Source of the DNA: a candidate division WOR-3 bacterium | GTDB taxonomy: Bacteria; Hydrothermota; Tepidihabitantia; B3-TA06 | Length of the DNA: 64,000 bases | Reading direction: 5' to 3' | NCBI GenBank assembly: GCA_965649265.1 | Contig: CBFGKC010000009.1 | Location: 1 to 64,000 of the forward strand | Program-made: the position numbers and the translations under genes | Part shown: piece by piece, positions 10,401 through 64,000 of the stretch | How the letters are laid out: each line of letters begins with the position of its first letter | Numbering within the stretch: the stretch's first letter is position 1 | Notes under the pieces: model-generated | The model's database searches: none | What the model saw: only the letters and a program-made list of their open reading frames with translations | What the model was told of the DNA's origin: nothing

Positions 10401-10475
10401 CCCACCCCGTAACACCCCGTAACACCCCGTAACACCCCGTAGCACCCCTAACACCAGTAACACCAGTAACACCCC
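10401..10475 (-). repeat. Family A tandem tract (GTGTTACGGG-type), 9-10 bp units
   Basis: CACCCCGTAA x3, CACCCCGTAG, CACCCCTAA, CACCAGTAA x2; abuts the surE -35 box. Confidence 0.95.
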
Positions 10476-10613
10476 ATTGCATGCAGTGACGCCTCCGAAA
10501 CACATTCAATAATGCATACCTATTTCCGCCGATTACTTCTGGTGCGATTCTTTAGTAATCTCCTTCTCCCTCATTGCAAGTGACGGAATGGATTCTGGAA
10601 GATACGGGGAAAA

Positions 10614-10742
10614 CTAAGGATGGTCTGAGGAGGGTCTGAGGAGGGTCTGAGGAGGGCGAGCGCCAGAGGCGCATGGGCGGAATCGTATTCCCGCAGAGGG
10701 GCTGAGGGAGGCTGAGGGGGGCTGAGGAGGGCTGAGGAGGGC
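10614..10742 (+). repeat. Family B composite: CTGAGGAGGG tracts flanking a 38-bp two-hairpin core (10658-10695)
   Basis: Four 11-mers on the left, core GAGCGCCAGAGGCGCATGGGCGGAATCGTATTCCCGCA, four 10-mers on the right. Confidence 0.92.
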
Positions 10743-10852
10743 AACACAGGATGTAGTATGTCGAACTCCGGTCGACGTTTGACGTTCTGGCTCGTCACTG
10801 TGTATCCAAAAAGAACAGGAAGTAGCCTAAGAGGCTTCCGGAAGGAGTTGGT

Positions 10853-10882
10853 GTGTTACGGGGAGGGCCGAGGAGGGCCGAG
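10853..10882 (+). repeat. Hybrid A/B mini-tract directly before a -35 box
   Basis: GTGTTACGGG-GAGGGCCGAGGAGGGCCGAG, then TTGACA at 10883. Confidence 0.75.
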
Positions 10883-10915
10883 TTGACAAGGAGGAGTTAA
10901 AAGATATGCTTCGCT

Positions 10916-11110
10916 ATGAATATTTGGGGAATAGTATTATCGACTGCGGCCATAGCATGTGGGTTGACTGGACTCGTATTCCTTTTCTGGGGATGGAACC
11001 GCCACAACAGGGGCGAAAAAGCCTCTCTTCAATTTTTGATAGCGGCGACAGGCGGCGTGATCTTCGCAGGTCTGCTCTACATCGGCGGCAGGCTGGGACT
11101 CTTATGGTAA
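10916..11110 (+). CDS. Small two-TM membrane protein (64 aa)
   Basis: Two hydrophobic segments; TTGACA-16-TATGCT-5 nt-ATG promoter; stop directly abuts the next ATG. Confidence 0.7.
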   Translation: MNIWGIVLSTAAIACGLTGLVFLFWGWNRHNRGEKASLQFLIAATGGVIFAGLLYIGGRLGLLW

Positions 11111-12756: not shown

Positions 12757-12763
12757 ATAATGA

Positions 12764-12825
12764 ATTATAGATGTTTTATACGATAGGTCAACATTTCTTG
12801 ACTTTCCCCTCCCCCTCCGTATACT
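12764..12825. promoter_or_regulatory. Back-to-back divergent sigma70 promoters, both apparently leaderless
   Basis: Minus strand: TTGACC(12791-12786)-16-TATAAT-7 nt-ATG. Plus strand: TTGACT(12798)-16-TATACT-5 nt-ATG(12831). Confidence 0.72.
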
Positions 12826-12830
12826 TCCGC

Positions 12831-13775: not shown

Positions 13776-13779
13776 AGCG

Positions 13780-14361: not shown

Positions 14362-14523
14362 GTTCCGCTTCCAGCAACAAAAAAATTCGTCAAGCCCACA
14401 TCAACAAAGCATAACTCTTTCTCCGCGAATTATCTGCCTTGGTGCTTTGCTGTCAGACTTCCGGGTCAAAGAATTTCTTCGGGCTTCACCGAACGAACTG
14501 GATAGAGCAGGTTAAATGCTAAA

Positions 14524-25296: not shown

Positions 25297-25597
25297 GAGC
25301 CAATCCTCTTGAAACGTAACGGACTTGAGGTTACTTCTGAGTTTTTTTCGATACTAACCTGCCTCGAAGTCTAAATCATGTTGCGCGAATAATGCTTCTA
25401 ATCATAAAAGAGACTATATACAATATCTCCATACGATTAGTGCTACAGAGATGAAGAATAAAATGTCGAGGATATCTGCAAAGAACAAACTCAACTTTTT
25501 TTGATGCGTAAGATATGAAGCAGAGAGAAGGAAGAAGATGAATGTGGTTCATAGGTATTATTACCTTGTGAGTAGTCTGTATACTACGAGGGGGATC

Positions 25598-25782
25598 GGG
25601 TACGTTACGGGCAGGAGGGGGTGTTACGAGTGTTACGGGGTGTTATTTCCTCTGATCTAAAGCTGCTGATGGAAATGACCTATGGGACGAGGACTCATCC
25701 CAATGGTCAGACCCTGCCCCGAAGGGGTACGGGGTGTTACGGGTTACGGGGGAGGTGTTACGGGTGTTACGGGTGTTACGGG
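25598..25782 (+). repeat. Family A composite: GTGTTACGG tracts flanking an 82-bp three-hairpin core (25646-25727)
   Basis: Core is 78/82 identical to 63481-63562; the last repeat unit contains the mnmA stop codon. Confidence 0.95.
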
Positions 25783-26921
25783 CACGATATTGTTCCGGCC
25801 AAAACTACCTTGTCATCATGGTAGATTACGGCAAGCTGGCCGGGCGTGATGGCCTCGAGTTTGTGGTCGAGAATGACCCTGTCTTCCTCGAGCCGGCAGG
25901 GGACGGAAGGCGTGGCATACCGGATCTTGCAATAGAGGGGGAGGGAGGATAAGTCGCGGTCGGTGAAGCGGTTAATGTTGACGATTCTGAAACAGGTCGA
26001 GCAAAGCGCGGAGCGCGGGCCGACAATCACGCGGTTTTTCTCGGGATCGAGCCGGACCACGAACAACGGCTCTCCTACAGCGATGCCGAGACCTTTGCGC
26101 TGACCGATGGTGTGGAACCAGATACCTTTGTGAAGACCCAGGAAATTGCCTTCAAGGTCGACTATTTCACCCTCTTTCTCGCCAAGATGTTTTTTGAGGA
26201 ACCCTTGCGTATTGCCGTCGGGTATGAAACATATGTCCTGGCTTTCGCGGTTGATGCATGGAAGTTTTTCTTCACGTGCTATCTTTTTGACCTCGATTTT
26301 AGTAAGTTCGCCTAACGGAAAGAGCAGCTTTGAAAGCCGCGACTTAGGGATAAGGGCAAGGAAGTACTCTTGTGATTTTCGATCGTCTTCGGCCTTTGCA
26401 AGGAAGTATTCACGGATTTCAGGAGAGGGTGGAGAGTTCTCTAAGTTATTTTCAGAAAAGACGTTCTCCTGGGGGCGAGAGATGGGTTCCCCTGGTAAAG
26501 GGTTGGGGTCCCCAAAGGAATACTCCGTATTTCTTTGGGGTGATATTTTTGCATAGTGACCGGTGGAGAGGAAATCGGCGCCGAAACGCTCGAAGGATTC
26601 CCAGAAAAGCCCGAAGCGGATGCGCTGATTGCAGACAGCACAGGGATTCGGCGTGCGGCCGTTCTTGTATTCGTCAATGAAGTAGCGGACGACTTCCTCT
26701 TCAAATTGCTTGCGCACGTCGATTATGGAGTGTGGAATGCCGAGTGTGCGGGAGACCTGAACCGCCGCCTCAATATCCTCCCGTGAACAGCACCGGCCGT
26801 CCTCGGACCACATACGCAAGGTAAACCCGTGTACTTCGAAGCCCTGTTCCTTGAGAATGAACGCGGCGACCGAGGAGTCTACCCCGCCGCTCATGCCAAG
26901 AAGGACTTTGCCTTTATTCAT
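25776..26921 (-). CDS. mnmA: tRNA 2-thiouridylase MnmA (Cys-rich type) with an internal insertion
   Basis: MSGGVDSS, RTPNPC, STGHYA, ESQDICF, HTIGQRKGLG and ITPGQ motifs. Confidence 0.96.
   Translation of the reverse strand: MNKGKVLLGMSGGVDSSVAAFILKEQGFEVHGFTLRMWSEDGRCCSREDIEAAVQVSRTLGIPHSIIDVRKQFEEEVVRYFIDEYKNGRTPNPCAVCNQRIRFGLFWESFERFGADFLSTGHYAKISPQRNTEYSFGDPNPLPGEPISRPQENVFSENNLENSPPSPEIREYFLAKAEDDRKSQEYFLALIPKSRLSKLLFPLGELTKIEVKKIAREEKLPCINRESQDICFIPDGNTQGFLKKHLGEKEGEIVDLEGNFLGLHKGIWFHTIGQRKGLGIAVGEPLFVVRLDPEKNRVIVGPRSALCSTCFRIVNINRFTDRDLSSLPLYCKIRYATPSVPCRLEEDRVILDHKLEAITPGQLAVIYHDDKVVLAGTISCP
26505..26542 (-). repeat. Family C REP-like palindrome inside mnmA
   Basis: CCCCAAAGGAATAC-TCC-GTATTTCTTTGGGG. 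On the minus strand it reads ACCCC...GGGGACCCC, as at 59050-59086. Confidence 0.8.
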
Positions 26922-26978: not shown

Positions 26979-27259
26979 TCTGAGAAATGTTCTGAGGGAG
27001 GTTCTGAGGGGGGCTCTGAGGGGGGCTCTGAGGGGGGCTCTGAGGGAGGCTCTGAGGGGGGCTCTGAGGAGGGCTCTGAGGAGGGCTCTGAGGAGGGCGA
27101 GCGTGCGCCAGGGGCGCATGGGCAGAATGGAATTCTGCAAGGAGTGGCCGGAGGCGCTGGACGCAAGCTTTGCTTCCGCCATCTCACTTTTGAATATCAA
27201 TGAGAGCGCCGGAAATGCAATTCCGCAGAAGAGAATACTGAGGGGTTGCTGAGGAGGGC
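26979..27259 (+). repeat. Family B composite: ten 12-bp TCTGAGG(A/G)(A/G)GGC units, a 41-bp two-hairpin core (27099-27139) and degenerate distal units
   Basis: Core is homologous to 10658-10695; the last unit CTGAGGAGGGC abuts the pepA stop codon. Confidence 0.93.
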
Positions 27260-29748: not shown

Positions 29749-29848
29749 AAACCTCGTGGATGCTTGACAATGTAATTCGAGAGTATATCATCTTTTATGG
29801 GCGAATGGCGAGACCGGCTTTGCGTATATTATACTCCTATCCCTAGAT

Positions 29849-29943
29849 TCCCTCACCCTCCCCTCTCCCGATGGGAGAGGGATAAATGCTGCCTCCTCCC
29901 TTCGGGACAAAGAGCCCACCGGTTGAAGGGTTGGGGATGAGGG
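29849..29943 (+). repeat. Palindromic CCCTCACCC/CCCTCTCCC-GGGAGAGGG element, copy 1 (17-bp insertion in the second hairpin)
   Basis: Direct repeat of 30867-30944. Confidence 0.9.
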
Positions 29944-30083
29944 TCCTGTCCTTGAAAAGGATTGCGAGCCTACCTGATACGCAGTGGCGTCAGAGATGCA
30001 ACGTCGGCCAATCGGCAAGGATTGCAGGCTTTGTGTAAGCTATACCTTTATCCATCTTGTTCACCAGTTCAAATTGAAATCTA

Positions 30084-30851
30084 ATGTCTATTAGCGATAA
30101 AACACGCAAGATTTTTTGGGGTCGTGCTGGAAATCGTTGTGCGATTTGCAAAAAAGAATTAGTTGTAGCCGCTACTTCTGATGATAACGAATCAATTATT
30201 GGCGACGAATGTCATATTATTTCCGGCAAGCCAGATGGTCCACGTTATGATCCATCATTCTCACCTAAAAAATCAGATAATCTTGAGAACTTAATTCTTC
30301 TATGTAAAGTTGACCATAAGATGGTAGACGATCAATATGAGACATACACCGTGCATATTCTTCGCCAAATGAAGAACAACCACGAGCTGTGGGTTTCTGA
30401 ACGGTTATCAGATTGGCAATGGCCAAAACAAGTGAGAATAAAAAGACTAAAGCAAAACATACCTGATTATCTTACGCGCCTAACGACAGGCAAAGAAATT
30501 CTGGAGATTTTAGAGCATGCGTGCCAAGTAGAGACAAATCCGTATGACGAATTGAAATCCGAGGAGGAGGCAGATTTGGTTGGTTATTTTTTCGGCTACA
30601 TTCAAGACTGTGACATCCTTGATTATATGGATTTGAACTTACAAGAACGCGTTCATATTGCATTTGAACTTACCAAAATACTTCAACAGCTTGACGATAA
30701 TGGCTTCTGGGTTTTTGGTGCCAGAGAGCTTCGTTTTCTTGAGGCCGACAAAAATGAACCCATGAAATGGCCTATTGCGATTATATGCGTATATCGTAAG
30801 GATAGTATGAGTGAACTTACAATTAGAAAAAATGGAAATCGTCTACAATGA
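30084..30851 (+). CDS. HNH endonuclease with an unknown C-terminal domain
   Basis: AGNRCAIC, ECHII...GPRY and ENLILLCKVDHKMVD motifs; AT-rich relative to its neighbours. Confidence 0.85.
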   Translation: MSISDKTRKIFWGRAGNRCAICKKELVVAATSDDNESIIGDECHIISGKPDGPRYDPSFSPKKSDNLENLILLCKVDHKMVDDQYETYTVHILRQMKNNHELWVSERLSDWQWPKQVRIKRLKQNIPDYLTRLTTGKEILEILEHACQVETNPYDELKSEEEADLVGYFFGYIQDCDILDYMDLNLQERVHIAFELTKILQQLDDNGFWVFGARELRFLEADKNEPMKWPIAIICVYRKDSMSELTIRKNGNRLQ

Positions 30852-30866
30852 GTCATACCTCTAAGG

Positions 30867-30944
30867 TCCCTCACCCTCCCCTCTCCCGAAGGGAGAGGGA
30901 TAAATATTACCTTCTCCCTTCGGGAGAAGGGTTGGGGATGAGGG
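30867..30944 (+). repeat. Palindromic element, copy 2
   Basis: CCCTCTCCC-GAA-GGGAGAGGG and CCTTCTCCC-TTC-GGGAGAAGG hairpins enclosed by CCCTCACCC...GGGGATGAGGG. Confidence 0.9.
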
Positions 30945-30962
30945 AGAAAAGAGGTTTTTGCT

Positions 30963-31385
30963 ATGCGTAAGCGTCCTCTTCCTCCTGAAATTCTTTCCAG
31001 ATGCAGAAAACTTCGAAAATCACAAACGTCCGCAGAATTAAAACTTTGGAGTTGTCTGAAAAACAGGCAAATATTCGGATTGAAATTCCGCAGGCAGCAT
31101 CCGATCGGTAAATTCCTCATTGATTTTTATTGCCACGAAGCCAGAATCGCAATAGAACTCGACGGCGGCGGTCACGCTGAGCCCCCACAAGCTAAACACG
31201 ATAATGAACGTACTAAATTCCTCGAGACAGAGGGAATCAAGGTTTTAAGATTCTGGAATACCGACGTATCAAAAAACCTAGAAGGAGTTGTCAAGGCCAT
31301 TGCCGACGCTGTTCCTTCATCATCACAGGCCTTGGCAGCCAGGATCCCTCACCAGGGAGACTGCGGGAAGGAAAAAACGCACTAG
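30963..31385 (+). CDS. DUF559 (Vsr-like) endonuclease domain protein
   Basis: LRKSQTSAELKLW, KFRRQHPIG, DFYC, IELDGGGH and VLRFWN motifs. Confidence 0.93.
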   Translation: MRKRPLPPEILSRCRKLRKSQTSAELKLWSCLKNRQIFGLKFRRQHPIGKFLIDFYCHEARIAIELDGGGHAEPPQAKHDNERTKFLETEGIKVLRFWNTDVSKNLEGVVKAIADAVPSSSQALAARIPHQGDCGKEKTH

Positions 31386-35010: not shown

Positions 35011-35033
35011 CAGATAAGGGCCCGTAACACATT

Positions 35034-40272: not shown

Positions 40273-41166
40273 CTACTCAGGCAAATAGGCCTCGGGCGGC
40301 TTTGTCGCGCGGCGCACGAACCCCTCGTCCTTACGCCACTCCTTAGCTACCTTGATGTGAAGCTCAAGGTATACAGGTCTTGACGAGAGCGCTTCGATTT
40401 TCTGCCTTGCTTTTGTTCCAAGCCTTTTTATAGCCTCTCCCCCCTTGCCGAGAATGATTGGCCTTTGCGATTCGCGTTCCACGTAAAGGACCGCACGGAT
40501 GAAATCCTTTCTGCCCTCCTGCTCCCTGTACTCCTCGATTTCAACAAAAACAGCATAAGGAATCTCCTCCCCGTAAAGCTCGAAGAGAGATTCACGCACC
40601 GCCTCGGCGGCAAAGAAGCGCATCGGATAAGTTGTTGGTATCTCTTGAGGGAAGTACGGCTCGCCCTCAGGGGAAAGCGCAAAAAGGGTTTTCAGGAGTT
40701 CGGGAAGACCCTCCCCCTTCAATGCGGAAATGGGGTGAATATCCGAAAGACCAAGCTGGCGATAGCGGTCGATGAGGGGAAGAAGCTCCAGCTTGTCTTT
40801 GACCGTGTCGACCTTGTTAATCGCGAGGGCCACCATTTTCTTTATTGACCGGACGAAAATGGAAAACTCCTCGCCCGGTTCATAACCGGCTTCGACCATG
40901 ACGAGAATAATGTCCGCGTCCTCGAGGGCCGAATCTATTTGAGTGCGCATGAATTCGTAAATCGCTCCACTGCGCTGAACGAGCCCTGGGGTGTCCAGAA
41001 ATACAAGCTGACCCTCGGGAGTAGAAAGAATCCCCAGGATGTTCTGGGCGGTAGTCTGTGGTTTTGGTGATACCGCGGACAGCTTCATTCCGAGGTACGA
41101 GTTAAGAAGCGTTGATTTGCCTACGTTCGGCGGACCGACAATCGCGACATAAGCGGATTTATTCAA
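40273..41166 (-). CDS. era: GTPase Era
   Basis: GPPNVGKST, KPQTT, DTPG, NKVD and EEIPY motifs, plus a KH domain ILGKGG. Confidence 0.96.
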   Translation of the reverse strand: MNKSAYVAIVGPPNVGKSTLLNSYLGMKLSAVSPKPQTTAQNILGILSTPEGQLVFLDTPGLVQRSGAIYEFMRTQIDSALEDADIILVMVEAGYEPGEEFSIFVRSIKKMVALAINKVDTVKDKLELLPLIDRYRQLGLSDIHPISALKGEGLPELLKTLFALSPEGEPYFPQEIPTTYPMRFFAAEAVRESLFELYGEEIPYAVFVEIEEYREQEGRKDFIRAVLYVERESQRPIILGKGGEAIKRLGTKARQKIEALSSRPVYLELHIKVAKEWRKDEGFVRRATKPPEAYLPE

Positions 41167-44100
41167 GCTCTACCTCCATAAGATGAGCATCAGCGGTGAA
41201 CAAAATGAAGCACGAATGCACTGGCAACTTCCATATCTTTTTCGCAGCATCGGCGTAAAGCCTGAGCTGTTCTTTGTAAATTTCTTTCGCTTCGATACCT
41301 GAAGGAAACGACTTGTAATCGATTATATCCAGACCCTGGGGTGTAAGCAACACCCTGTCAATTCGACCTGAAACGACCTCGATACCCCGCCTCATGATAA
41401 ATGGGACTTCGCTTTCCGCATTCAACCGGGGCAGTATGAATCTCTCGAGGAGACCTGAATGGTCGAGACGCTCGATTTGGCTTTGGATTTTATTAACGTA
41501 GACGTCCGCCATCGACGGTGCCAAATTTAAAGAAAGCACTATCGAGTTCACAGACACGCGAATTGAATTCTTATCGGTTCGAACGGCGCCCTTGGAGACT
41601 CTGTCGAGAAGGATATGAAGTATTTCGCCGAAATGAATGAGGCCTTGAGCGGTTTCGTATTCTTTTTCCATTTCGTCACTGGCGGTAGTGAAAATCAACG
41701 GTTCAGTCGACCACTTGCGCTCAAGGTGAATGTCATGTTCCTCCCGATGATCTTCCGGGATATCGGTTTCCTGTTCCGTGAATACGTTGTCCCTTATTTC
41801 GAGTTTGATCCCTTTTAGAGACGCGGGTAGTTCCAAAACGTTGTCCAATTCACGCAAGCCCAACCCCTGAACCAGGTAATCAAGCCAGCCCGAAGCTTTA
41901 CCAGTCCAGGTCCCGGAGAGGAAAAGGGCGTCACGAGCGCGTGTCACGGCAACATAGAAAAGTCTCTTTTGTTCCTCGGCGATTTTAGCTTCCCACAGCA
42001 ACTTTTCAGGATGCTCTTTGTAGGAAGAATCGGAAAAGGTAAAAATGACTTTTTCCCCATCCTCTCTTCTTGAAAGCCCTTCGCTTCGCCTGGATGAATG
42101 CTCTTCAAGGCCTGCAAGAAAGACCACTTTGGAATCAAGGCCTTTCGAAGCATGGATCGTCATAAGCCTGACGGCATCCCGACCTTCGATGTTCACGTTG
42201 GCCTTGGGTTCGTCCTCACGCGTGCTCATTCTTTCCAGACGCTCCGCTATTCGATACATGGAAAGACCTTCCTCGTCAAAGTTTTCAAGAATTCTTAAGA
42301 ATTTGTGAATGTTTTCGTTCTGCTGTTCATCGGCAAACCATGACCAGAGAGCACGCTCATTGAAGATACTTTCAAAAAGAACGGCGGAAGGCTCCCTGTC
42401 AACCTTTGCAATTATTCTTTCGAACCACGAAACGGACTCGGCAAATTTTGACTCATGAATGCTGCACAGCTTGGCCCAGAGATTTGCTCCTTCTCTGAAA
42501 GCAACCTCGAGTATTTCATCTTCGGTAATACCCAATAAAGGCGAACGCATGATTCCGTACAATGAGAGGGAATCGGATTGATTTGCTAGAAACCGGACGA
42601 GCTGCCTGAGAAGTACGGATTCAGGAGTCGAGTAAAACCCCGTACCGCCCACTACCACAAAGGGTATTCGGCATTTGCGAAGCGCTTCCTCATAACTGGC
42701 AAGGTGTGTTCGTGCTCGGATCAGGATGGTAACATCTTCAAACCTGCACGGCCTTTCTGTTTCTTCGTTATCCGACTTCTCAAAAACAGGAAGCACTCCG
42801 ATTATTTCCGTTATTCTTTGGGCTATAGTCCGGGCTTCCGCATTCTTCTGCTCGTTCATAAGGGCGCCGGGTTCCATTCGAGTCAGCAGTATCTCAACAA
42901 CGCCTCTGGCTCCGGGGTTTCTGCGCGCGGTAAATTTCTCGTAAGGAGTTTTCCATGCTTCTTCTTCCTTGTGCATAAGCCTTGAAAACAACTCGTTAAC
43001 GAAATCGATTATCAAAGGAAGGCTCCTGTAGTTCTCCCGTAATACGACTTCTTCAAAACCGCCCCTCATCCACTCCCGCATCTCGAATCTTGCTTTTTCA
43101 AAAACCTCAACGTTTGCACCCCTGAAAAGGTACACCGACTGTTTAACGTCCCCTACAATAAAGAGTGTAGGGGTTTTACCTAGTTCACGCTTGGCACCCA
43201 TACCCGAACGCCACTCCTCGGTGAGTTTGGAAACTATAGCCCACTGCAGACCGTTTGTATCCTGGAATTCGTCAACCAGAATATGATCGGTTTGCTCGTC
43301 AAAACTCTGGAGAACGTTGGACCAGTTCGGCGAGTGATAGAGAACCTCATACAGTTTGTATTCCAGATCGCCGAAATCCAGCACCTTGTCCTTTCTCTTC
43401 CTTTCTTCGTATTTCTGGGCAAGATGGCGAAAAACCGTAATAAAACCCTCAGTTTCAACGGCAGAGCGCCAGCGCCAGAAAACGTCATAGAACCGGGCAA
43501 ATCCCTCGGCTTTCGCGGGAATCTCAGGTTTGCCCTTCGGAAAACGCTTTCTCAAAATGCCGTCTTTCGTAAGGAAACGCGACGAGGTTTTTTCCATGAC
43601 CGTGCGCAACACTTCCAGATGCTCTCGTTTTTTAGAAGGATCGGCCACCTTGTCGAACGCCGAGGCCTGCCAGAAATCCTCCCCCCAGGATTCCCTGAGA
43701 GTCTTCCAGGCAATCTCGTATTCTTCTGATATTGAGGATGTATCAATATCAAAAGCAAGATAACTCTGCGGTATCTGCAAGAAAAGGGAACGTATCCTCG
43801 TCCTGAGCCTTGTCCATCCTTCGACAAGAGTAAGATGACGTACCCAGAGAGAGGCGTCCGTCGAGCTTGCGCCAAGTTCCACGAGCCCTTCACGTATTAT
43901 TTCGTCGCGTATGAGATCGGCCTCTATGGCATCGAGAATCTTGAGGCTCGGCGATAAGTTTAACTCGAACGCAAAGCGCTCGAGAACCGAGAGCGCGAAC
44001 GAATGAACGGTGGAAATCCTGAAACGCGAGAGTTTTGGCTGTATTTCCGAATGCAAGGCAGGCAGGCGCTTTATAAGCAATTCAAGCACTCGTTCCTTCA

Positions 44101-44290
44101 TTTCGGCCGCCGCTTTTTCGGTAAAGGTTATAGCCAGTATTCTTTCGGGGGGGACCCCCTCCTCCAGAAGAGCAACGTAGCGTTCCGCAAGTTTCTGGGT
44201 CTTTCCCGAACCGGCGGGCGACGAAACGACAACACTTTTCTTCACGTCGAGATGGGTTGGATTCATGATCCTTCCTTTTAATTCGCCCAT
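41159..44290 (-). CDS. addA: AddA-like UvrD helicase/nuclease
   Basis: AGSGKT, ITFTEKAA, VDEFQDT, GDVKQSVY, TIHASKGL and YVAVTRA helicase motifs; C-terminal GRIDR...DYKS nuclease. Confidence 0.92.
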   Translation of the reverse strand: MGELKGRIMNPTHLDVKKSVVVSSPAGSGKTQKLAERYVALLEEGVPPERILAITFTEKAAAEMKERVLELLIKRLPALHSEIQPKLSRFRISTVHSFALSVLERFAFELNLSPSLKILDAIEADLIRDEIIREGLVELGASSTDASLWVRHLTLVEGWTRLRTRIRSLFLQIPQSYLAFDIDTSSISEEYEIAWKTLRESWGEDFWQASAFDKVADPSKKREHLEVLRTVMEKTSSRFLTKDGILRKRFPKGKPEIPAKAEGFARFYDVFWRWRSAVETEGFITVFRHLAQKYEERKRKDKVLDFGDLEYKLYEVLYHSPNWSNVLQSFDEQTDHILVDEFQDTNGLQWAIVSKLTEEWRSGMGAKRELGKTPTLFIVGDVKQSVYLFRGANVEVFEKARFEMREWMRGGFEEVVLRENYRSLPLIIDFVNELFSRLMHKEEEAWKTPYEKFTARRNPGARGVVEILLTRMEPGALMNEQKNAEARTIAQRITEIIGVLPVFEKSDNEETERPCRFEDVTILIRARTHLASYEEALRKCRIPFVVVGGTGFYSTPESVLLRQLVRFLANQSDSLSLYGIMRSPLLGITEDEILEVAFREGANLWAKLCSIHESKFAESVSWFERIIAKVDREPSAVLFESIFNERALWSWFADEQQNENIHKFLRILENFDEEGLSMYRIAERLERMSTREDEPKANVNIEGRDAVRLMTIHASKGLDSKVVFLAGLEEHSSRRSEGLSRREDGEKVIFTFSDSSYKEHPEKLLWEAKIAEEQKRLFYVAVTRARDALFLSGTWTGKASGWLDYLVQGLGLRELDNVLELPASLKGIKLEIRDNVFTEQETDIPEDHREEHDIHLERKWSTEPLIFTTASDEMEKEYETAQGLIHFGEILHILLDRVSKGAVRTDKNSIRVSVNSIVLSLNLAPSMADVYVNKIQSQIERLDHSGLLERFILPRLNAESEVPFIMRRGIEVVSGRIDRVLLTPQGLDIIDYKSFPSGIEAKEIYKEQLRLYADAAKKIWKLPVHSCFILFTADAHLMEVELE

Positions 44291-46965
44291 CAGCCGCAGA
44301 ATTCCTTATACTCGCAGAAAAAGCAGGTTGCCGGTTTCTTCTCCGGCAATCCGAAATTCCCTTCGCGGATTTTTTCCACCGAGTCTCTGGCGAAAGCAAG
44401 CGCCCTCTGTATCGAATCTTCCGGCTCCTCTACCTGCACGATCTCTGATCTGTTGAAATCGTAAAGACCGAATGAATGGATTTCCGCATTAGCGCTTTTC
44501 CTTATCATCTCACAATAAAGCGGAAGCTGCAGAGATTCCCCTTTTCCGAGTTTTGCCGCAAAGCCGGTTTCTTTGCCTGTTTTGTAATCCATGACCCTTG
44601 CCCCCTGACCCATCCAGTCTACCCTGTCTACCCTGCCGCGAAGGGTGAAATTTCCCTCTTCGAAGAAAAATCTTATATCCCGTTCGAGCCATTCGGAGAC
44701 AATCCGCCATCCCTTTTCCTGTCTGACCTCCTCCTCTTGCCGGAACCAGTCAATTCGCGACCCCAGCCAGTCCTCAATCCACAGTCTGACGAATGGATTC
44801 AATCTCATCCTGTCAAGTTCAAAAGCAAGGCCGGCGCAGAGTTTCTCTTCAAGGTCCTGGGCTTTTGGATTCTCTCTCATGAGCCTTTCCATTACCGAAT
44901 GCAGCACGTTTCCCAAAAGCCTGGCCTCAGGCTCCTCAGAGGGTTCCTCCGAAGGTTCAAGACCCAGAACGGTGGCCAGGAAGTATCTATAGGGACAGTT
45001 TCTGTAGACCTCAAGTAATGTAACTTTGAACGGATACTCTGATCCGAATTTTTTTCGAAGAAGGTAAAGCGATTCGGCGTTTTCGAATACAACGCCTTGC
45101 CTGGATTCCGAGCCGTGTGAAGGTCTGGACAAAAGGAATTCTTCTGTGGAGTATACAGTCCTGTTTTCTGCTAAAGAAGACTCGCCGCGTTCTACGAGAA
45201 AGACCGAGGAAAGCAAAGGCCTGTCGCCCTCCATGGATGGAGCGGACAGGTAAAGGGCCTCCCTTGGCATGAGTTCAAGTCTTCGAAACTCAAACCTCGA
45301 GTCGAGGAAAGAATGCTCTCTGGAGGGTATGGAAATCGATTCCTTTATTCGCTCGGGAAGCAGAAGGTCGCGCCTCGGGTATTTCGGGAACTCTCCGTCG
45401 ACAAGCCCGCCCAAAAACAGATAGCGCACGTCGAGCCATCGGCTTTCGACAACCGGCACAACTCGAATCCCGAGAGGTGAATATTCCTCATCGTCAAGTT
45501 GAACATCCCGCGACAGGAGCGACTCAAGGGTCTCCCTTGCAAACCGCGGAGTCAGTTGTTTTTCACCCGTAAGCTCGAGCACCCTTTGAAGTTTCACAAA
45601 GGCGTCCTCCAGACCTTTCCTTAGTTCCGGCGGCGCATCCCAGCCCAGCCATTCAAGAATATCGCGAAGCTTTCTTGTAAAGCCCTCTGCAGGCATTGGT
45701 TTTGAGAATGATTCCGCCTTCGACGCGAATTCAGCCACGAACGAGCGTATCTCTCTTGCCGTGTGTTCCCCATGAATCGCCATCTTGCGCGAAGGTTCGG
45801 AAAGAAACCAACTCTTCCACGACCCCGCTCCTGAAACGATACCCTCATCCCGTGATAGAACGTCAACCCAGTCTCTAACGCTTTTTGGAACTTTCGTGAA
45901 AAACGGGGCAAGAAGAAGAGCAACCACATCACGCCTGCGAAATTTGTTTTCAGGTAAGTACAAGATATCGATCGCAGCACGAATGGCTGGAAACGATCCC
46001 AGAGCCGGACGAAGCGATATGTTGGCTTTTAACCCGTACCTGGCAAAAACACGAGCCACAAGCGACCTGTAGATTCCCAGGGCAGGAAAAACTACCATTA
46101 TCTCATCTGGGGTTACCCCCGTTTCGGACAGGGTACAAATGTGACGGGCTATTGCCGCAACTTCATCCTCACGCGAACGGTACCGTTTCCAGCAGGACAA
46201 GGGATTCGGGGAAGCCAAAGGTGCCTGCATGACCTTTAACCCTGCCGAGACGAAAAAGTTCTGGGCCTTGAGCGCGAGCGGATCATCGGGAATTATTACT
46301 ACCACCTCAGGTATCTTTTCCACCAGTGCCTCGAGCAGTCTTTGCTCGGAGGTTCTGGGTTCAAAATAGCCTTCAACCAGAAGAAGTTTCTCGCCGAGGT
46401 TCCCGATGTAATTCATTGACTCCTCTAAAAGACGCTCGTGATCGATGAATCCCTCTTTTTCCATGTGCGCGTCGTATCTCCGCAGCAACCCGAGAGCCTC
46501 TTCGAGTCTTCTCTCCGTATCGATGTCATAAAGGACATCCCGGGCAAGCTTCGGTATTTGTTCCCAATCATCGGGATAGAAGCGGCAGAGTTCGGCGTAA
46601 AGCTCGGATAGAAGACCTACGTGCTCCTCCCTGAAGAACAAGCTTTTTGATTCACGAATGAGTTTGAGGAAAACGAATCGCCTGTCGCGTTCATCAACTA
46701 TCCCTTTGGACGACCAGAGCGAAACAAGATTTTCTGCAAGTAGTTGGAGGGTAACGCTTTCCGGTATTTTGGACGCCGATTCCTTGTAAAGAGAAAGAAT
46801 CTCGAACACGGCTGCCCTTGCCTTCCGCTTATTCGGCGTAAGGTAGAGAATCTCCTCGGGTTTGAATTTACTGGATATTTCCAACTCGGAGAGCAGTCGC
46901 CTTGTGAATCCCGGCGAACAGAGCGGTCGCATGGCAAGCAGGCGAAGAGGTGCTCGAGAAGACAT
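44290..46965 (-). CDS. addB: AddB-like inactive helicase with PD-(D/E)XK nuclease and Fe-S cysteines
   Basis: CPYRYF, GRVDRVD, DYKTG and CFFCEYKEFC motifs; coupled to addA; promoter TTGACT-16-TAAACT-6 nt-ATG 46965. Confidence 0.88.
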   Translation of the reverse strand: MSSRAPLRLLAMRPLCSPGFTRRLLSELEISSKFKPEEILYLTPNKRKARAAVFEILSLYKESASKIPESVTLQLLAENLVSLWSSKGIVDERDRRFVFLKLIRESKSLFFREEHVGLLSELYAELCRFYPDDWEQIPKLARDVLYDIDTERRLEEALGLLRRYDAHMEKEGFIDHERLLEESMNYIGNLGEKLLLVEGYFEPRTSEQRLLEALVEKIPEVVVIIPDDPLALKAQNFFVSAGLKVMQAPLASPNPLSCWKRYRSREDEVAAIARHICTLSETGVTPDEIMVVFPALGIYRSLVARVFARYGLKANISLRPALGSFPAIRAAIDILYLPENKFRRRDVVALLLAPFFTKVPKSVRDWVDVLSRDEGIVSGAGSWKSWFLSEPSRKMAIHGEHTAREIRSFVAEFASKAESFSKPMPAEGFTRKLRDILEWLGWDAPPELRKGLEDAFVKLQRVLELTGEKQLTPRFARETLESLLSRDVQLDDEEYSPLGIRVVPVVESRWLDVRYLFLGGLVDGEFPKYPRRDLLLPERIKESISIPSREHSFLDSRFEFRRLELMPREALYLSAPSMEGDRPLLSSVFLVERGESSLAENRTVYSTEEFLLSRPSHGSESRQGVVFENAESLYLLRKKFGSEYPFKVTLLEVYRNCPYRYFLATVLGLEPSEEPSEEPEARLLGNVLHSVMERLMRENPKAQDLEEKLCAGLAFELDRMRLNPFVRLWIEDWLGSRIDWFRQEEEVRQEKGWRIVSEWLERDIRFFFEEGNFTLRGRVDRVDWMGQGARVMDYKTGKETGFAAKLGKGESLQLPLYCEMIRKSANAEIHSFGLYDFNRSEIVQVEEPEDSIQRALAFARDSVEKIREGNFGLPEKKPATCFFCEYKEFCG

Positions 46966-47214
46966 CAACGCAGTTTAGCTGAAAGAGCGAACAAGTCAAT
47001 CAGATTGAGAAGGTGAGAGAATATGTTATCTTCATGAAGGAAGTCTGTCATCTCCAAATCAAATGGATAAACGACATCAATACTTTAGTTGTCTAATAAA
47101 CCACTCGCAGTATCGCGAGCGAAACGTCTTTATAATTTATTTATTCCAGGGTGTTTTAATACTCATGGACACCAATAGCTTGACTACTCATTCAGGCTGC
47201 GTATCATTCTATCC

Positions 47215-60107: not shown

Positions 60108-60616
60108 GGATTTTCGTTCGGCTTTACTTTGGGTTTTAGTGTCGTTTCCTCGAGTAGGGAAATGTAATCCATGCGTGCAGCTTCAAACGAGGCTTTAGCC
60201 AACTCGCGCTCATTAAGTGCAGGTTTGCTGGTATCTTTCCCGGCAATCAATTCGCGAACATAACGTTCCCCCTCCCCTATACCTGAAGAAAAGGCGAGGC
60301 GATATATTCCGAGAAGAGAGTTAGTAAGGGCAGAATCAAGTTCTATTCCCGAAGAATCACAAAAGGCTTCCATTGAATTTATGCCCGTAACACCCCAGGA
60401 ATTAAGAGCTTCAGACTCGACGTTTATCTCCGAGGATGTCAGTGTCCCGGCAAGGAAGCCTTCGGCGGCTTCCAGGGTAAAAATCATACCTTCTATGAAA
60501 CCCATCTCGTATGCGTGTTCTGCAAGAGCTTCACGAAGCTGCCTGTCCTTGCTGTTACAGGAAATTGTGGAAAGCGAAACCAGGAACGCGATAAAAATGA
60601 AGATTGTTTTTTTCAC
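60104..60616 (-). CDS. Hypothetical lipoprotein
   Basis: GTG start gives MKKTIFIFIAFLVSLSTISC (lipobox); promoter TTGACT-17-TATACT-5 nt-GTG. Confidence 0.75.
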   Translation of the reverse strand: MKKTIFIFIAFLVSLSTISCNSKDRQLREALAEHAYEMGFIEGMIFTLEAAEGFLAGTLTSSEINVESEALNSWGVTGINSMEAFCDSSGIELDSALTNSLLGIYRLAFSSGIGEGERYVRELIAGKDTSKPALNERELAKASFEAARMDYISLLEETTLKPKVKPNENP

Positions 60617-60650
60617 TTCCGAGTATAGAACCATAGCCGGAAAAAGTCAA

Positions 60651-60727
60651 CCCGTAACACCTCCCGTAACACCTCCCGTAACACAACCCGTAACACAACC
60701 CGTAACACAACCCCGCGCCCGTAACAC
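60651..60727 (-). repeat. Family A tandem tract, 12-bp units
   Basis: CCCGTAACACCT x2, CCCGTAACACAA x3 and one more CCCGTAACAC; abuts the -35 box at 60645-60650. Confidence 0.95.
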
Positions 60728-60975
60728 GCTGCAATAACCAACGTCTCGGCGAGCGTAATGAAACTTCTCGTACCCTTAAAGAGATGGGCCTGAGTGTGGA
60801 TTAAGGCTTTATTCCCGAAAGCGGTTTCCACCCCAGAGGATAACTCACCGGTGCTCAGCGCATGAAACATGAGCCGTGATCCATACCTTCAACATGCCTG
60901 CGAGCTTATCTTTTTTTGTTGCGACTCTCGAGCTGCATTACATTGACAGCGTTTGCGGCGAACGTATCATCTGCA

Positions 60976-61983
60976 ATGTTTAAAACTGTACGGCCCTTCA
61001 TCTTTTTAACGCTGCTTGCGGCTTGTTCAAGCGAAAAGTATCTCGAAGAAACCCGATTCCCGATGAGTACCTATTTCAAGATCAAGATATGGGGCTCTTC
61101 TGATGAGATGTTGAACAAGGCAATGGATGAGGCATTCAGGGAGGTGGATAGAATTGACAGTCTCACAAGCGCCTTCAGCCCCTCCAGCGCGGTATGGGTT
61201 TTGAATACGAAGGGGGAGGTGGTCTCGGCCGATCTTGCAGAACTCGCGACCAGGGCGCTTGAAATAAGCAGGGAAAGCGGTGGCTCTTTCGATCCGACGG
61301 TGCTCGGGCTGATGAATCTTTGGGGATTCAGGGACTCCACTCATTCCAGCTACAGGGTTCCATCAAAAGAAGAGATAGATTCAGCACTTAGTTACGTTGA
61401 TTACAGAAAGATCGCGGTATCCGGCGATACGGTAAGCCTGAGGCCGGTCGGCGAAGAAGCTTTGAGGATTAATAGAGGTTCCAAAGGGCTCCTCTGGGGC
61501 GTCGATCTCTCGGCGATTGCCGAAGGCTATGCGGTGGACAGGGTAATCAGGATACTCAAGGAAAATGGAGTATCAAGAGGCATTGTGGACGCAGGAGGCG
61601 ATATAGGCTGTTTCGGCGAGCGAAAGGGCGGATGGAGCATAGGGATAAGAAATCCCAGAGGTGAAGGACTGCTTGCCATCGTTCATGTTAAAGAGGGAGG
61701 CATAGGAACGTCTGGGGATTATGAGAACTTCTTCGAAAAGGACGGCCAAAGGTATCATCATCTGATGAACCCGGCAACGGGTTACCCCGCACGAGGAGCG
61801 GTATCGGCGACCATAATTGCACCTACCGCGACCGAGGCCGATGCATGGGCAAAGCCTTTATTCGTAATGGGTGAGAAGGGAATCTCATTCCTTGATTCGA
61901 TGGGTAGAATTCAAGGCATGCTGGTGATGAATGACGGTCGAATATTGACCACTAAAGGATTCCCGAAACTGGAAAAACCGTGA
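60976..61983 (+). CDS. apbE: FAD:protein FMN transferase ApbE (lipoprotein)
   Basis: LAAC lipobox; FDPTV, DLSAIAEGYAVD, DAGGDI, GTSGDYE and RYHHLMNP.TGYP motifs; start ATG 60976. Confidence 0.93.
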   Translation: MFKTVRPFIFLTLLAACSSEKYLEETRFPMSTYFKIKIWGSSDEMLNKAMDEAFREVDRIDSLTSAFSPSSAVWVLNTKGEVVSADLAELATRALEISRESGGSFDPTVLGLMNLWGFRDSTHSSYRVPSKEEIDSALSYVDYRKIAVSGDTVSLRPVGEEALRINRGSKGLLWGVDLSAIAEGYAVDRVIRILKENGVSRGIVDAGGDIGCFGERKGGWSIGIRNPRGEGLLAIVHVKEGGIGTSGDYENFFEKDGQRYHHLMNPATGYPARGAVSATIIAPTATEADAWAKPLFVMGEKGISFLDSMGRIQGMLVMNDGRILTTKGFPKLEKP

Positions 61984-62963
61984 AGGAAGCGCTCTATTAC
62001 GAAAAGCTGGAAGGCCAAAGAGTTCGCTGCAAGCTGTGCTTTCACGAATGCATACTTGCCCAGGGAGATGAAGGTTTCTGCCTCGCGAGACGAAATGAAG
62101 CAGGCGTCCTTGTGGCAGAGACCTACGGTGAACTCGTGGCCGCGCATCTTGATCCAATCGAAAAGAAGCCGCTTTATCATTTTCACCCCGGGGAGGAGAT
62201 ACTGTCGGTGGCCGCTTCGGGCTGCAATCTTGCCTGTCCCTTCTGTCAGAACGTTGAGATATCAAGAAAGCACACCGCATCCGAATTCGCGTCTCCGGCA
62301 AAGCTTGTGGAGACTGCAATGCGCAGCCGTTCAAAGGGCATTGCCTACACCTACACCGAGCCGCTTGTGTGGTTCGAATACGTGCTTGATACCTCAAAAG
62401 CGGCGCACAAGAAAGGCCTGTACAACGTTATTGTCTCTAACGGAACAATAAACGAGGAGCCTTTAGCCGGGCTTATCCCCCATCTCGATGCCGCAAACAT
62501 AGATCTCAAGGGCGACAGGGAGTTTTACCGCAAGGTTCTCAAAGGCGACAGGGATTCAACCATAAGGACGATAAGGATGCTCCACCAGGCGGGCGTCCAT
62601 GTCGAGGTGACGCTATTGCTGATTCCGGGCGGGAATGATTCCGAAGAGCAGGCCGAGGAGGAAATTTCCTTCATTGCGTCGGTGGACTGCAGAATCCCTT
62701 TCCACATTTCCAGATACTTCCCTCACAACGCTTACCCCTCTCCCCCTACGCCTGTGGAAACCATGGAAAGAGTATACTACAAAGCCAAGGAACGACTCAC
62801 CTATGTTTATCTCGGCAACGTTATGCTCGAACGCGGAAACGACACCTGCTGCCCTCACTGCCAGGCAGTGCTCGTGGAACGAGCCGGATATCGAATCAAG
62901 ACAACAGGGATAAAAGATTCGCGCTGCATCTCATGCGGCAGAAAAGTCGATTTCGTGCTGTGA
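61980..62963 (+). CDS. amrS: AmmeMemoRadiSam system radical SAM enzyme
   Basis: DPIEKKPLYHFHPG, GCNLACPFCQN, AYTYTEP and YVYLGNV motifs. Confidence 0.92.
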   Translation: MKEALYYEKLEGQRVRCKLCFHECILAQGDEGFCLARRNEAGVLVAETYGELVAAHLDPIEKKPLYHFHPGEEILSVAASGCNLACPFCQNVEISRKHTASEFASPAKLVETAMRSRSKGIAYTYTEPLVWFEYVLDTSKAAHKKGLYNVIVSNGTINEEPLAGLIPHLDAANIDLKGDREFYRKVLKGDRDSTIRTIRMLHQAGVHVEVTLLLIPGGNDSEEQAEEEISFIASVDCRIPFHISRYFPHNAYPSPPTPVETMERVYYKAKERLTYVYLGNVMLERGNDTCCPHCQAVLVERAGYRIKTTGIKDSRCISCGRKVDFVL

Positions 62964-63328
62964 ATCGCATTTTTAAGAGAGCCGACGTGATTCTAGCCGT
63001 CGTCATCGTTATGGCAGCAGGCGCAGTGTGGCTCACGACAAGCCTCCTCAACCACAAAGGTGAAGCCAGAACGATAAAGATCAGCTCTGCAAAAGATGAC
63101 TTCGAGATTCCGCTCTCGGATACCCTTCTTGAGATTCCTGGGGTGTTAGGACAAACCTCGATAAGGATCAAGGACGGCCAGGTATGGGTGGAGAAGGCCT
63201 CATGCCCTAATAAGGTGTGCGTGAGACAGGGAAAAATCTCAAAGCCGGGCGAGACGATAGTGTGTCTTCCGAACAGGGTAGTAATCACGATTGAAGGAGC
63301 GAAGAAAACCGATGCGGTCACGTACTGA
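62960..63328 (+). CDS. NusG domain II-containing protein
   Basis: KRADVIL + TM, ASCPNKVCV..G.I and IVCLPNRVVI motifs; GTGA overlap at 62960. Confidence 0.9.
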   Translation: MNRIFKRADVILAVVIVMAAGAVWLTTSLLNHKGEARTIKISSAKDDFEIPLSDTLLEIPGVLGQTSIRIKDGQVWVEKASCPNKVCVRQGKISKPGETIVCLPNRVVITIEGAKKTDAVTY

Positions 63329-63377
63329 GAAATGTGAAGGAAGAATGAATCCGGAAAGCGAAGATTGAGGACTGCAG

Positions 63378-64000
63378 TTGAACAAGAAGACACTTAAAGG
63401 GAAAAAAAGACGATACGTCACGAATTCGGAACAAAAAGTGGAAGAGACGGATGGAAGTGTTGCGGGTGTTGCGGGTGTTATTTCCTCTGATCTAAAGCTG
63501 CTGATGGAAATGACCTGTGGGATGAGGACTCATCCCAGGGGTCAGACCCTGCCCCGAAGGGGTATGGGTGTTACGGGGGGTGGAGGTGTTACGGGTGTTA
63601 CGGGTACGGGTGTTACGGGTACGGGTGTTACGGGTACGGGAGGCTTAACGCCGAGACAGAGAAACCTGGCGCTTCTGGCCGGTCTTTCTGTCGCGCTTTA
63701 CACTTTAGAGAATCTCATACCGCTACCGATTCCCTGGCTGAGGATAGGAATAGGCAACGTCGGCGTGCTGATGGCGCTTTATATGCTCGGTCCGCTGGAC
63801 GGCTTTTTCGTGTTATTGATCAAGATAGTGGTGGGTTCGCTTCTTTCGGGTAGATTTCTGGGGCCGTTCTTTATTTTCGCGCTCGGCGCTGGAATACCCT
63901 CGTACTGGATCATGGCGGGTGTTAAAAAACTTTTCGGACGCGTGTTCGGGCCTGTAGGCGTAAGTGTTGCAGGTGCATTGTTTCACAACATCTTCCAGCT
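63378..64000 (+). CDS. Gx transporter family (heptaprenyl-PP synthase component I-like) membrane protein; 3' end outside the window, start uncertain
   Basis: Manual translation from 63645: LTPRQRNLALLAGLSVALYTLENLIPLPIPWLRIGIGN...GVSVAGALFHNIFQ. Frame is open back to TTG 63378 (GAGGA SD). It is the usual partner of NusG II proteins. Confidence 0.8.
   Translation, partial: MNKKTLKGKKRRYVTNSEQKVEETDGSVAGVAGVISSDLKLLMEMTCGMRTHPRGQTLPRRGMGVTGGGGVTGVTGTGVTGTGVTGTGGLTPRQRNLALLAGLSVALYTLENLIPLPIPWLRIGIGNVGVLMALYMLGPLDGFFVLLIKIVVGSLLSGRFLGPFFIFALGAGIPSYWIMAGVKKLFGRVFGPVGVSVAGALFHNIFQ
63457..63640 (+). repeat. Family A composite: tracts of 9-15 bp units flanking the 82-bp three-hairpin core (63481-63562)
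   Basis: GTGTTGCGG x2, then the core, then GTGTTACGGG and (GTGTTACGGGTACGG) x3. Confidence 0.95.

Follow-up and report, generated by a model that had tools for sequence, protein, structure and literature searches.

The window analysed here, 64,000 nucleotides of contig CBFGKC010000009.1 from a candidate division WOR-3 bacterium, carries G-rich tandem arrays of a short unit, GTGTTACGG. At least four further, independently assembled metagenome-assembled genomes (MAGs) carry tracts of the same unit, which establishes that this is a real, dispersed and lineage-wide repeat family. We propose, with moderate confidence, that the tracts represent a small non-autonomous element made of a head and a tail, together with tails that stand alone, and that they spread at the level of DNA and were later remodelled by slippage. 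The full form would be non-coding; its head would be a hairpin core of 60–96 nt, followed on the 3' side by GTGTTACGG units in a row, the tail.

The unit in the window and in related genomes

The exact unit occurs 22 times in the 64-kb window, both strands taken together, where 0.22 matches are expected, and none of 100 dinucleotide-preserving shuffles reaches 22. A preliminary description of this DNA had located four arrays of the unit; Tandem Repeats Finder (TRF) and the count of exact matches confirm them. Tract 1 (10401–10475, G-rich strand on the minus strand) is made of 10-nt units (TRF array 10403–10475, period 10, 7.6 copies), with three perfect units on the promoter-proximal side and the decayed units GTGTTACTG, GTGTTAGGG and GTGCTACGG on the distal side. 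Tract 3 (60648–60727, minus strand) is made of 12-nt units (TRF array 60648–60713, period 12, 5.5 copies) which form two blocks of variants, GGGAGGTGTTAC twice and GGGTTGTGTTAC three times. The two remaining regions, 25598–25782 and 63457–63640, do contain the repeats but are not the plain arrays they were taken for, each being composed of a tract, a 96-nt core and a second tract, all on the plus strand. Composite 1 has a decayed left tract (25598–25645) and a right tract, or tail (25727–25782), in which TRF detects arrays of period 9 (25618–25645 and 25754–25782). Composite 2 has a left tract made of the variant unit GTGTTGCGG (63457–63479, period 9) and a tail (63566–63640) in which 9-nt units occur together with a 15-nt higher-order unit that includes a truncated unit, GTACGG (TRF array 63590–63640, period 15).

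The two single copies reported earlier are present, one at 10853–10861 (plus strand), followed by two copies of GGAGGGCCGA, and one at 35022–35030 (minus strand), in the 23-nt spacer between two GDP-sugar dehydratase/epimerase genes. That list was incomplete, since a third copy, at 60385–60393 (minus strand), is read in frame as GVTG within a lipoprotein gene. We also note that the two copies of GGAGGGCCGA (10862–10882) lie between the solitary unit and a TTGACA, and adjoin both. The term "telomere-like", which had been applied to the arrays solely for their uneven G-runs, is weakened.

To survey other genomes, 185,579 species genomes (596 Gb) were scanned with a pattern of three units separated by gaps of 0–6 nt, which matched at least 68 loci. 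Among the matches listed, at least 37 come from four genomes: 13 from E44_bin36, 11 from CSMAG_1024 and 6 from CSMAG_461, which are MAGs of Candidatus Stahlbacteria, and 7 from an "uncultured bacterium" MAG, a relative whose orthologous genes are 64–68% identical to those of CSMAG_461 at the DNA level. The tract-bearing genomes have a G+C content of 41–54%, and the nucleotide identity of orthologous blocks between them is 64–83%. None of the 68 listed loci has flanks similar to the window, and a tblastn search with 48 window proteins found no syntenic locus; the window would thus represent one more genome, distinct from these. At least 31 other loci among the matches listed are scattered across many phyla; they were set aside as chance matches, their number being by a rough estimate about what chance could give in 596 Gb, or as separate families.

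We then counted tracts, defined as at least three unit-like matches no more than 25 nt apart, in 36 related loci (L004 was left out, for it overlaps L003) and in the window. This census yields 60 tracts. It is important to note that all the related loci were selected for three perfect units, which biases densities and unit purity, that the gene calls are heuristic calls of open reading frames (ORFs) and that the promoters are consensus matches. The other tandem repeats of these loci each have a unit of their own. More solitary exact units are present than expected (11 versus 0.85, 6 versus 0.65 and 3 versus 0.49 expected), and one of them, inside a gene, has been kept base for base in two species despite diverged flanks (L003 8563, L039 3997), which shows that a single unit can stay unexpanded.

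Tandem repeats are error-prone in short-read MAG assemblies, so that we had to consider whether the tracts are an artefact of assembly or are confined to this contig. Either is extremely improbable: the repeats are found in four other assemblies, four tracts in three pairs of loci (L001/L022, L003/L039 and L010/L015) occupy orthologous positions, and the reading frame is kept in conserved proteins.

The arrays are reshaped where they stand, as the preliminary description had supposed. Periods and spacers are specific to each locus, and orthologous arrays differ in their units: five HdrA orthologs, which all contain the core, have one to three GVT copies on either side of it, and in three pairs of loci the tract is in the same place with a different make-up. 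Units and locus-specific spacers would be gained and lost by slipped-strand or unequal exchange, which would give each locus its own period.

The arrays are also polar. Read along the G-rich strand, decayed units strongly favour the 5' flank of the perfect block over its 3' flank, by 25 to 6 when one mismatch at most is allowed, and by 40 to 12 with up to two. When tracts are counted instead of units, 21 show 5' decay and 7 the opposite, and a comparison of half against half gives 23 versus 7 (Wilcoxon p = 5e-4). All five genomes agree in this direction, and so do all three classes of positions (14:4 in genes, 13:2 on the promoter side, 13:6 for the rest). The search pattern is symmetric, so that the selection of the loci cannot create this direction. 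We know of no described counterpart of this polarity in bacterial short tandem repeats. It might result from younger tails lying 3' of older ones.

A hairpin core with a tail of units

The 96-nt segment nested in the two composites of the window (25638–25733 and 63473–63568, both on the plus strand) is 95% identical between its two copies and has GTGTTACGG units on both sides. The ends of the first copy resemble the unit (5' GGGTGTTATTTCC, 3' TGCCCCGAAGGGGTACGGG). Both copies fold into hairpins on either strand, with z-scores of just -0.7 to -2.7, which do not separate a role as RNA from a role as DNA.

With an nhmmer profile, eight cores were detected in the related loci, of which E44_bin36 and CSMAG_461 have four each. 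Their consensus reads GTGTTATGTCC, hairpin 1, ATAGTGAAAAT, hairpin 2 (GCCCC-loop-GGGGT) and ACGGG; the two hairpins differ in sequence, and the pairing of hairpin 1 is kept through changes on both sides at five of seven pairs. A covariance model built solely from these eight cores, and run over 360 kb, matches both window cores over the full length of the model, with 28.5 bits for the copy at 63473–63568 (E = 5e-4) and 26.5 bits for the other (25635–25738, E = 1.4e-3). The match passes through both termini and the terminal hairpin, and the interior of the window cores is a different, longer module. There are thus ten cores in total, of 60–96 nt. The termini of the putative head are conserved and unit-like, GGGTGTTAT.TCCT on the 5' side and TGCCCCGNAGGGGTACGGG on the 3' side.

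A tract is present on the 3' side of nine of the ten cores and is missing from the 5' side of three; counting the perfect units around the ten cores gives 26 for the 3' side and 6 for the 5' side. In its appearance, the core is a head to which a tail of units is joined. Most loci have the tail only; at these, the head would have been lost between flanking direct repeats, or would never have arrived.

The core does not correspond to a known RNA family, since no match was obtained in Rfam: a scan of the window at gathering thresholds returned tRNA only, a scan of 25540–25840 at E ≤ 10 returned nothing, and gathering scans of L003, L032 and L065 were likewise empty. Nor is it a peptide inserted in many unrelated proteins, in the manner of the Rickettsia palindromic elements (RPE): a search with the core peptide gave only eight matches, from HdrA, a peptidoglycan (PG)-binding protein and three further proteins. 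The peptide of the window core matches nothing but the window's own protein. In this contig, the frame of a gene with a Hpre_diP_synt_I domain (63438–63998, plus strand) is open across the whole of composite 2, which protein P0011 (237 aa) reads as an N-terminal extension.

The preliminary description had considered a link with a mobile element, and this part of it is supported by a hairpin core that has conserved termini, is nested in tracts, and occupies some orthologous sites but not others. The clearest case is a PG-binding protein, for which the loci of E44_bin36 (L003) and CSMAG_1024 (L039) differ by a clean indel of 75 nt (25 codons) consisting of a core and a short tail; the indel is edged by a 16-nt direct repeat which is itself composed of units. 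In a second case, protein P0009 has a core exactly where its ortholog in L012 has just a tract. The latter retains the 3' terminus of the core, read as GTGVTG, which suggests that the head was lost. As for tracts, the RimO gene of CSMAG_461 contains a tract of 36 nt, with three 15-nt periods that include neighbouring codons, which neither the ortholog in L034 nor any of 20 other WOR-3-like orthologs examined contains. The tract-core-tract element (about 90–110 nt) that lies upstream of this RimO gene is likewise absent in L034.

Two of the three empty sites contain partial matches to the unit (GTAACA in one, GATTTAAGA, with five of nine positions, in the other), and the third (L022 compared with L001) contains none. 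New copies may be seeded at sites that already resemble the unit.

Could these observations be explained by plain short tandem repeats, that is, by chance seeds amplified by replication slippage with the help of G-rich structure, with neither a mobile element nor a dedicated factor, the core being a passenger that inserts into tracts? Several features fit: some periods take in flanking bases, as in the 15-nt unit of RimO, identical variants are adjacent in blocks, as in tract 3, the excess solitary units are possible seeds, and two genomes have tracts with no core detected. The tandem repeats of Borgs behave alike, with flanking partial repeats and in-frame genic repeats (PMC9879509). What slippage leaves unexplained, however, is why the same unit of 9–10 nt, and no other, appears at many loci across five genomes that differ in G+C; it accounts neither for the 5'-to-3' polarity nor for the unit-like ends that the core has conserved. 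A unit that stays constant at 41–54% G+C, these ends and the polarity are arguments for a process of greater specificity than the slippage of chance seeds, and we regard slippage as the whole explanation as unlikely.

Positions of the tracts, promoters and the search for an enzyme

Nineteen of the 60 tracts lie within long ORFs, in frame. The proteins concerned that are backed by Pfam are a HdrA-like oxidoreductase, RimO, FeoB, a Mur ligase, a nitroreductase, RsmB and a LVIVD-repeat protein; the tract is inside the Radical_SAM match of RimO, inside the Mur_ligase_M domain of the Mur ligase, and in the C-terminal tail of RsmB. One protein carries two tracts that are read in different frames, one giving VLR repeats and the other VTG repeats, which indicates that it is the DNA that is copied, and not the peptide. 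The spacing of the units is a multiple of three in 51 of 51 cases in genes compared with 82 of 136 outside genes (Fisher p = 1e-9), where it varies from 5 to 24 nt. Taken together, the in-frame copies, the use of several frames, the keeping of the frame and the filled and empty sites show a process which operates on DNA and whose products are filtered by selection.

With their G-rich 3' end, 22 of the 60 tracts have the start of a co-oriented gene past them, and 19 face the stop end of a gene on the opposite strand. In 13 of these 19 cases, the end of the ORF lies between -63 and +14 nt from the end of the tract. The ORFs on the opposite strand often terminate at a TAA offered by the C-rich strand of the unit; this is the case of mnmA in the window, whose stop codon (25776–25778, minus strand) falls within the last unit of the right tract of composite 1. 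Selection would spare the copies that do no harm, namely those in the gap between a terminator and the next -35 box, those that provide stop codons (the TAA of the C-rich strand), and those read in frame as loops or linkers of proteins.

Single or double units are also found just before a PGVYF motif in paralogs that resemble C-terminal sorting domains (L001 1933, L022 1838, L067 390 and L001 4787); these units share one relative position in several of the paralogs.

In the window, tracts 1 and 3 end at promoter-like sites, identified as consensus matches. On the minus strand, the last unit of tract 1 is followed after 6 nt by the putative promoter of surE (10365–10400), with TTGACC (10395–10400), 16 nt, TACAAT (10373–10378), 5 nt and the ATG (10365–10367); the Pfam scan identifies a SurE domain in the gene behind the tract. 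Similarly, the last unit of tract 3 is followed after 1 nt by the putative promoter of the lipoprotein gene (60614–60650, minus strand), with TTGACT (60645–60650), 17 nt, TATACT (60622–60627), 5 nt and the GTG (60614–60616). Reading the sequence therefore bears out what had been described for the borders of the arrays, the -35 boxes of surE and of the lipoprotein gene and the TAA of mnmA. The surE transcript looks leaderless, judging from the sequence. The same short distance, with a -10 box merely 4–11 nt ahead of the start codon, is seen at both window sites and in L031, L018 and L063, which suggests that leaderless mRNAs may be common in this lineage.

The association with promoters is not limited to the window. 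We searched for TTGACA-16..18-TATAAT with at most three mismatches in the 12 positions, starting within 25 nt of the tract end. A near-consensus promoter is present at the G-rich 3' side of 17 of the 60 tracts and, pointing outward on the opposite strand, at the other side of 2 of 59 (binomial p = 7e-4), compared with 3.3% of random windows from the same loci. The -35 box mostly comes straight after the last G-run.

These results support the idea of cis-regulatory arrays, in which the units would be oriented binding sites of a protein, or would form quadruplex DNA on the non-template strand, the other copies being by-products. Consistent with this idea, the -10 boxes are 4–11 nt before the start codons, the divergent spacer of L018 contains two back-to-back tracts that each point to their own promoter, and two species (L001 and L022) have both retained a tract ahead of one and the same promoter. 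At least four runs of three or more G are present in 42 of the 60 tracts, and the window contains 11 canonical quadruplex motifs compared with 1.2 in shuffles. Similar G-rich heptamer arrays of Xanthomonas and Nostoc form quadruplexes in vitro (PMC4692102).

On the contrary, the 19 tracts that lie in frame in unrelated housekeeping proteins, and the 19 more that abut stop ends of opposite-strand genes, count against regulatory arrays. Only about 11 of 126 strong promoters (about 10%) carry a tract, and this in loci that were picked for holding one. A spacing of 5–24 nt outside genes is poor for cooperative binding. The canonical quadruplex motif (G3+N1-7 four times, loops of at most 7 nt), assessed in silico only, fits just 22 of the 60 tracts, and the number of G-runs per tract ranges from 1 to 11 without a peak at four. 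Last, tracts in genes and tracts at stop codons are polar too. Arrays of a TGTTAC-binding protein, which had been put forward as one of three explanations, therefore do not hold as a general one, given the tracts in frame, the spacing and the strong promoters that are free of tracts. We consider a regulatory origin of the family as possible, but rather unlikely.

We also asked whether the unit is a general promoter-upstream motif, and rejected this: no conserved upstream motif was seen in the 115 promoters that have fewer than two unit-like matches upstream, and the unit-like TTACGGG is found just before the -35 box in only 5 of these 115, compared with about 0.8 expected.

In the mechanism that we propose, the family would be mainly selfish or neutral DNA, and promoters may have recruited the copies next to -35 boxes as part of their upstream DNA. 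Several points weigh against it. A purely selfish model does not predict that the adjacency to promoters is one-sided; either the copies on the promoter side were co-opted, or the process is drawn to that position. The comparisons of filled and empty sites are few, three for tracts and two for the core, and none of them concerns the window's own loci. The 75-nt indel and its 16-nt direct repeat fit a target-site duplication and a deletion between direct repeats equally well. The nhmmer search found no core in 86 kb of CSMAG_1024 or in 59 kb of the "uncultured bacterium" MAG, both of which contain tracts, and it follows that tracts can persist, and perhaps arise, without a core. Terminal inverted repeats were not seen at the ends of the core when these were inspected by eye, with no dedicated search.

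The last of these points is the lack of an enzyme in the DNA that was sampled. Pfam detects no reverse transcriptase, transposase or HUH domain in 58 ORFs of the window, in agreement with the preliminary description, which had reported no candidate there. The only nuclease-like matches are a DUF559 protein (30963–31385), a weak, below-cut-off match to HNH_2 (30084–30851) and an AddAB-like helicase-nuclease pair (41159–46968). The expectation that a gene for a reverse transcriptase or a protein of the RAYT/IS200 type would lie beside the densest tracts is not borne out either: there is no reverse transcriptase, transposase or HUH gene in 56 ORFs of the eight densest related loci, which gave only a fragment of a Xer-like integrase (L013:3-539).

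This bears directly on the hypothesis that the arrays are written by an enzyme, either a lineage-conserved reverse transcriptase with an RNA template or a HUH or nicking enzyme, which would recognise the unit in a single orientation and add canonical units at the G-rich 3' end. The same unit in genomes whose orthologous blocks are only 64–83% identical, the perfect units on the 3' side and decayed units on the 5' side across all genomes and classes of positions, and the partial unit matches at empty sites, which could prime the addition, all go in this direction. However, such a gene is absent from the 58 and 56 ORFs examined, which are a small part of each genome, and the higher-order periods of 12–18 nt and the locus-specific spacers require local duplication anyway. 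To our knowledge, there is no biochemical precedent for enzyme-written repeats in bacteria. We find this hypothesis decidedly unlikely.

A broader variant would combine mobility and writing: an active, oriented system conserved in the Stahlbacteria-like lineage would copy the head and the tail to unit-like sites, by target-primed reverse transcription or by a single-strand HUH mechanism, laying fresh canonical units on the 3' side. This idea is speculative and we doubt it. If true, it would explain the polarity, the copies without a head, the empty sites with seeds and a unit that does not change between genomes, and bacteria would have their own equivalent of tailed retroposons.

Other repeats and comparison with known systems

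The window contains a second G-rich tandem family, CTGAGGRGGG followed by 0–2 nt, with units of 10–12 nt and up to nine copies (10617–10656, 10698–10742 and 26979–27098). Its loci share an adjoining hairpin segment of about 45 nt (10657–10697 and 27099–27140), a tract-plus-core design like that of the GTGTTACGG family; it was not seen in the related loci. Two direct repeats (29835–29945 and 30853–30945, 84–86% identical), which contain a hairpin, CTCTCCC-N4-GGGAGAG, and G-run motifs, flank the ORF with the weak HNH_2 match (30084–30851, E = 0.0015) and precede the gene of the DUF559 endonuclease-like protein; this segment sits among three SIMPL/DUF541 paralogs. Elsewhere, the hairpin motif occurs only in Stahlbacteria loci, L001 (twice), L039 and L055, that is, in 3 of the 68 matches listed. 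Shared repeats, namely the GTGTTACGG unit, the core and this hairpin motif, are what would place the window in the Stahlbacteria-like lineage. Three tandem subtilase (Peptidase_S8) paralogs occupy positions 157–8447, and the third of them has a C-terminal FlgD Ig-like domain.

Among the matches in other phyla, an 11-nt tandem unit, GTGTTACGGC(T/C), present three times and then followed by a GTGGCAC-like sequence, occurs in L033, L040 and L060, from one alphaproteobacterial genome, and in L037 and L044, from Jannaschia; each genome has it at several intergenic loci, and it may represent a dispersed family in its own right. In L042, L049 and L057 (Candidatus Cloacimonas) and in L002 and L056 (Bacteroidota), the arrays come after copies in the opposite orientation, CCGTAAC or CGTAACA, and the three Cloacimonas loci are alike. 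In an Acidimicrobiales MAG (L014 1680–1800), three 15-nt motif units are enclosed by two copies of a 37-nt repeat, in the manner of a CRISPR spacer.

If our proposal is correct, WOR-3/Stahlbacteria, a phylum that has been little studied and has few members in culture, harbour one short repeat at a hundred or more loci per genome; this estimate is roughly extrapolated from a density of about one tract per 13–25 kb. It would remodel intergenic regions, supply stop codons and add low-complexity loops to RimO, a Mur ligase, FeoB and HdrA. The tracts would be lineage markers, likely loci for strain typing, and a source of errors in gene calling, of which the gene start at 63438 is an example. The polarity and the conserved ends of the core point to an oriented, sequence-specific process that is undescribed for bacterial short tandem repeats.

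How does the family compare with known systems? Judged by eye, the unit does not appear to fit a mimic of the -35 box, a DnaA box, a parS half-site, the core of an integron attC site or an uptake sequence. Repetitive extragenic palindromes and bacterial interspersed mosaic elements (REP/BIME) mobilised by RAYT, which have palindromic units of 20–40 nt with a GTAG or CGTC head, do not correspond, the unit being non-palindromic and no Y1 transposase being found in the 58 and 56 ORFs. The tracts are not CRISPR arrays, in which unique spacers of similar length part identical repeats, for their units are contiguous or separated by 0–9 nt of G-rich filler, nor contingency (phase-variable) repeats, in which unit number alters the frame or the spacing of the promoter, in view of the 51 of 51 genic spacings that are multiples of three and of the promoter tracts that lie upstream of the -35 box. 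Mini-elements of the IS200/IS605 insertion sequences have similar subterminal hairpins at both ends and insert 3' of a tetra- or pentanucleotide target. Of these features, the core has two hairpins, which differ in sequence, and the unit contains TTAC, but the left junction of the core is not located after TTAC (L003/L039); TnpA was not seen in the sampled DNA. The variable number tandem repeats of mycobacterial interspersed repetitive units (MIRU-VNTR) resemble the present family as dispersed minisatellites at gene borders, which overlap stop and start codons, but have units of 40–100 bp. Simple-repeat tails are known at the 3' end of short and long interspersed nuclear elements (SINE and LINE), which have a structured head, a variable run of short units, many copies without a head, and microhomology at the target; unlike in these elements, a reverse transcriptase or another enzyme is not linked to the GTGTTACGG family.

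The closest published systems are compared below. RPE are small non-coding repeats found in frame in unrelated housekeeping genes, where they are tolerated (PMC10969869). The in-frame insertion in housekeeping genes is alike, but RPE are palindromes of about 150 bp, unrelated in sequence to the tandem nonamers described here, and our core is found in few genes only (HdrA, the PG-binding protein and three further proteins). Correia elements are transposable elements of the miniature inverted-repeat kind (MITEs) with terminal inverted repeats, a TA duplication and promoter boxes of their own, and are mostly found just upstream of genes (PMC10969869). Like them, the proposed element is small and non-autonomous, lies just upstream of genes and may contribute to promoters; more generally, it shares with MITEs that it is small, non-coding, multi-copy and present or absent at orthologous sites. 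It differs in that no inverted termini were seen and that spacers and -10 boxes vary by locus, so that the neighbourhood of the -35 box is at most what is shared. Borg tandem repeats, in archaea, are pervasive, fast-evolving and perfect, and the genic ones keep the frame and add low-complexity peptides (PMC9879509). Each region has its own unit of independent origin in Borgs, whereas here one unit is used across loci and genomes.

The preliminary description had called the family a candidate undescribed system. A literature search, with subscription journals outside its scope, found no description of the GTGTTACGG unit or of repeats of Stahlbacteria/WOR-3, but the kind is known, that of dispersed G-rich short tandem repeats (PMC4692102). 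Rehm et al. (2015) described in Xanthomonas (GGGAATC) and Nostoc (GGGGA(C/T)T) dispersed heptamer repeats which form quadruplexes in vitro, lie close to the borders of genes and differ from one relative to another, and for which neither a function nor an origin is known (PMC4692102). The unit of the present family is longer (9–10 nt) and belongs to another lineage; about one third of its sampled tracts are in frame in genes, whereas the heptamers are under-represented in coding DNA, a contrast which is indicative, our sample being biased. Upstream of genes, the G-rich strand is the sense strand here and the antisense strand there, and the preference for four units is not seen here. The accessible text of PMC4692102 mentions no counterpart of the hairpin core or of the polarity of the arrays. 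The resemblance is nevertheless clear: in both cases, units with G-tracts form head-to-tail arrays at many loci, in the vicinity of the starts and stops of genes, with copy number and sequence that vary at the same locus, and the description of the class, a G-tract unit of 6–9 nt repeated head to tail at many loci above chance, applies to the GTGTTACGG family, with 22 matches in the window for 0.22 expected and 60 tracts in the census.

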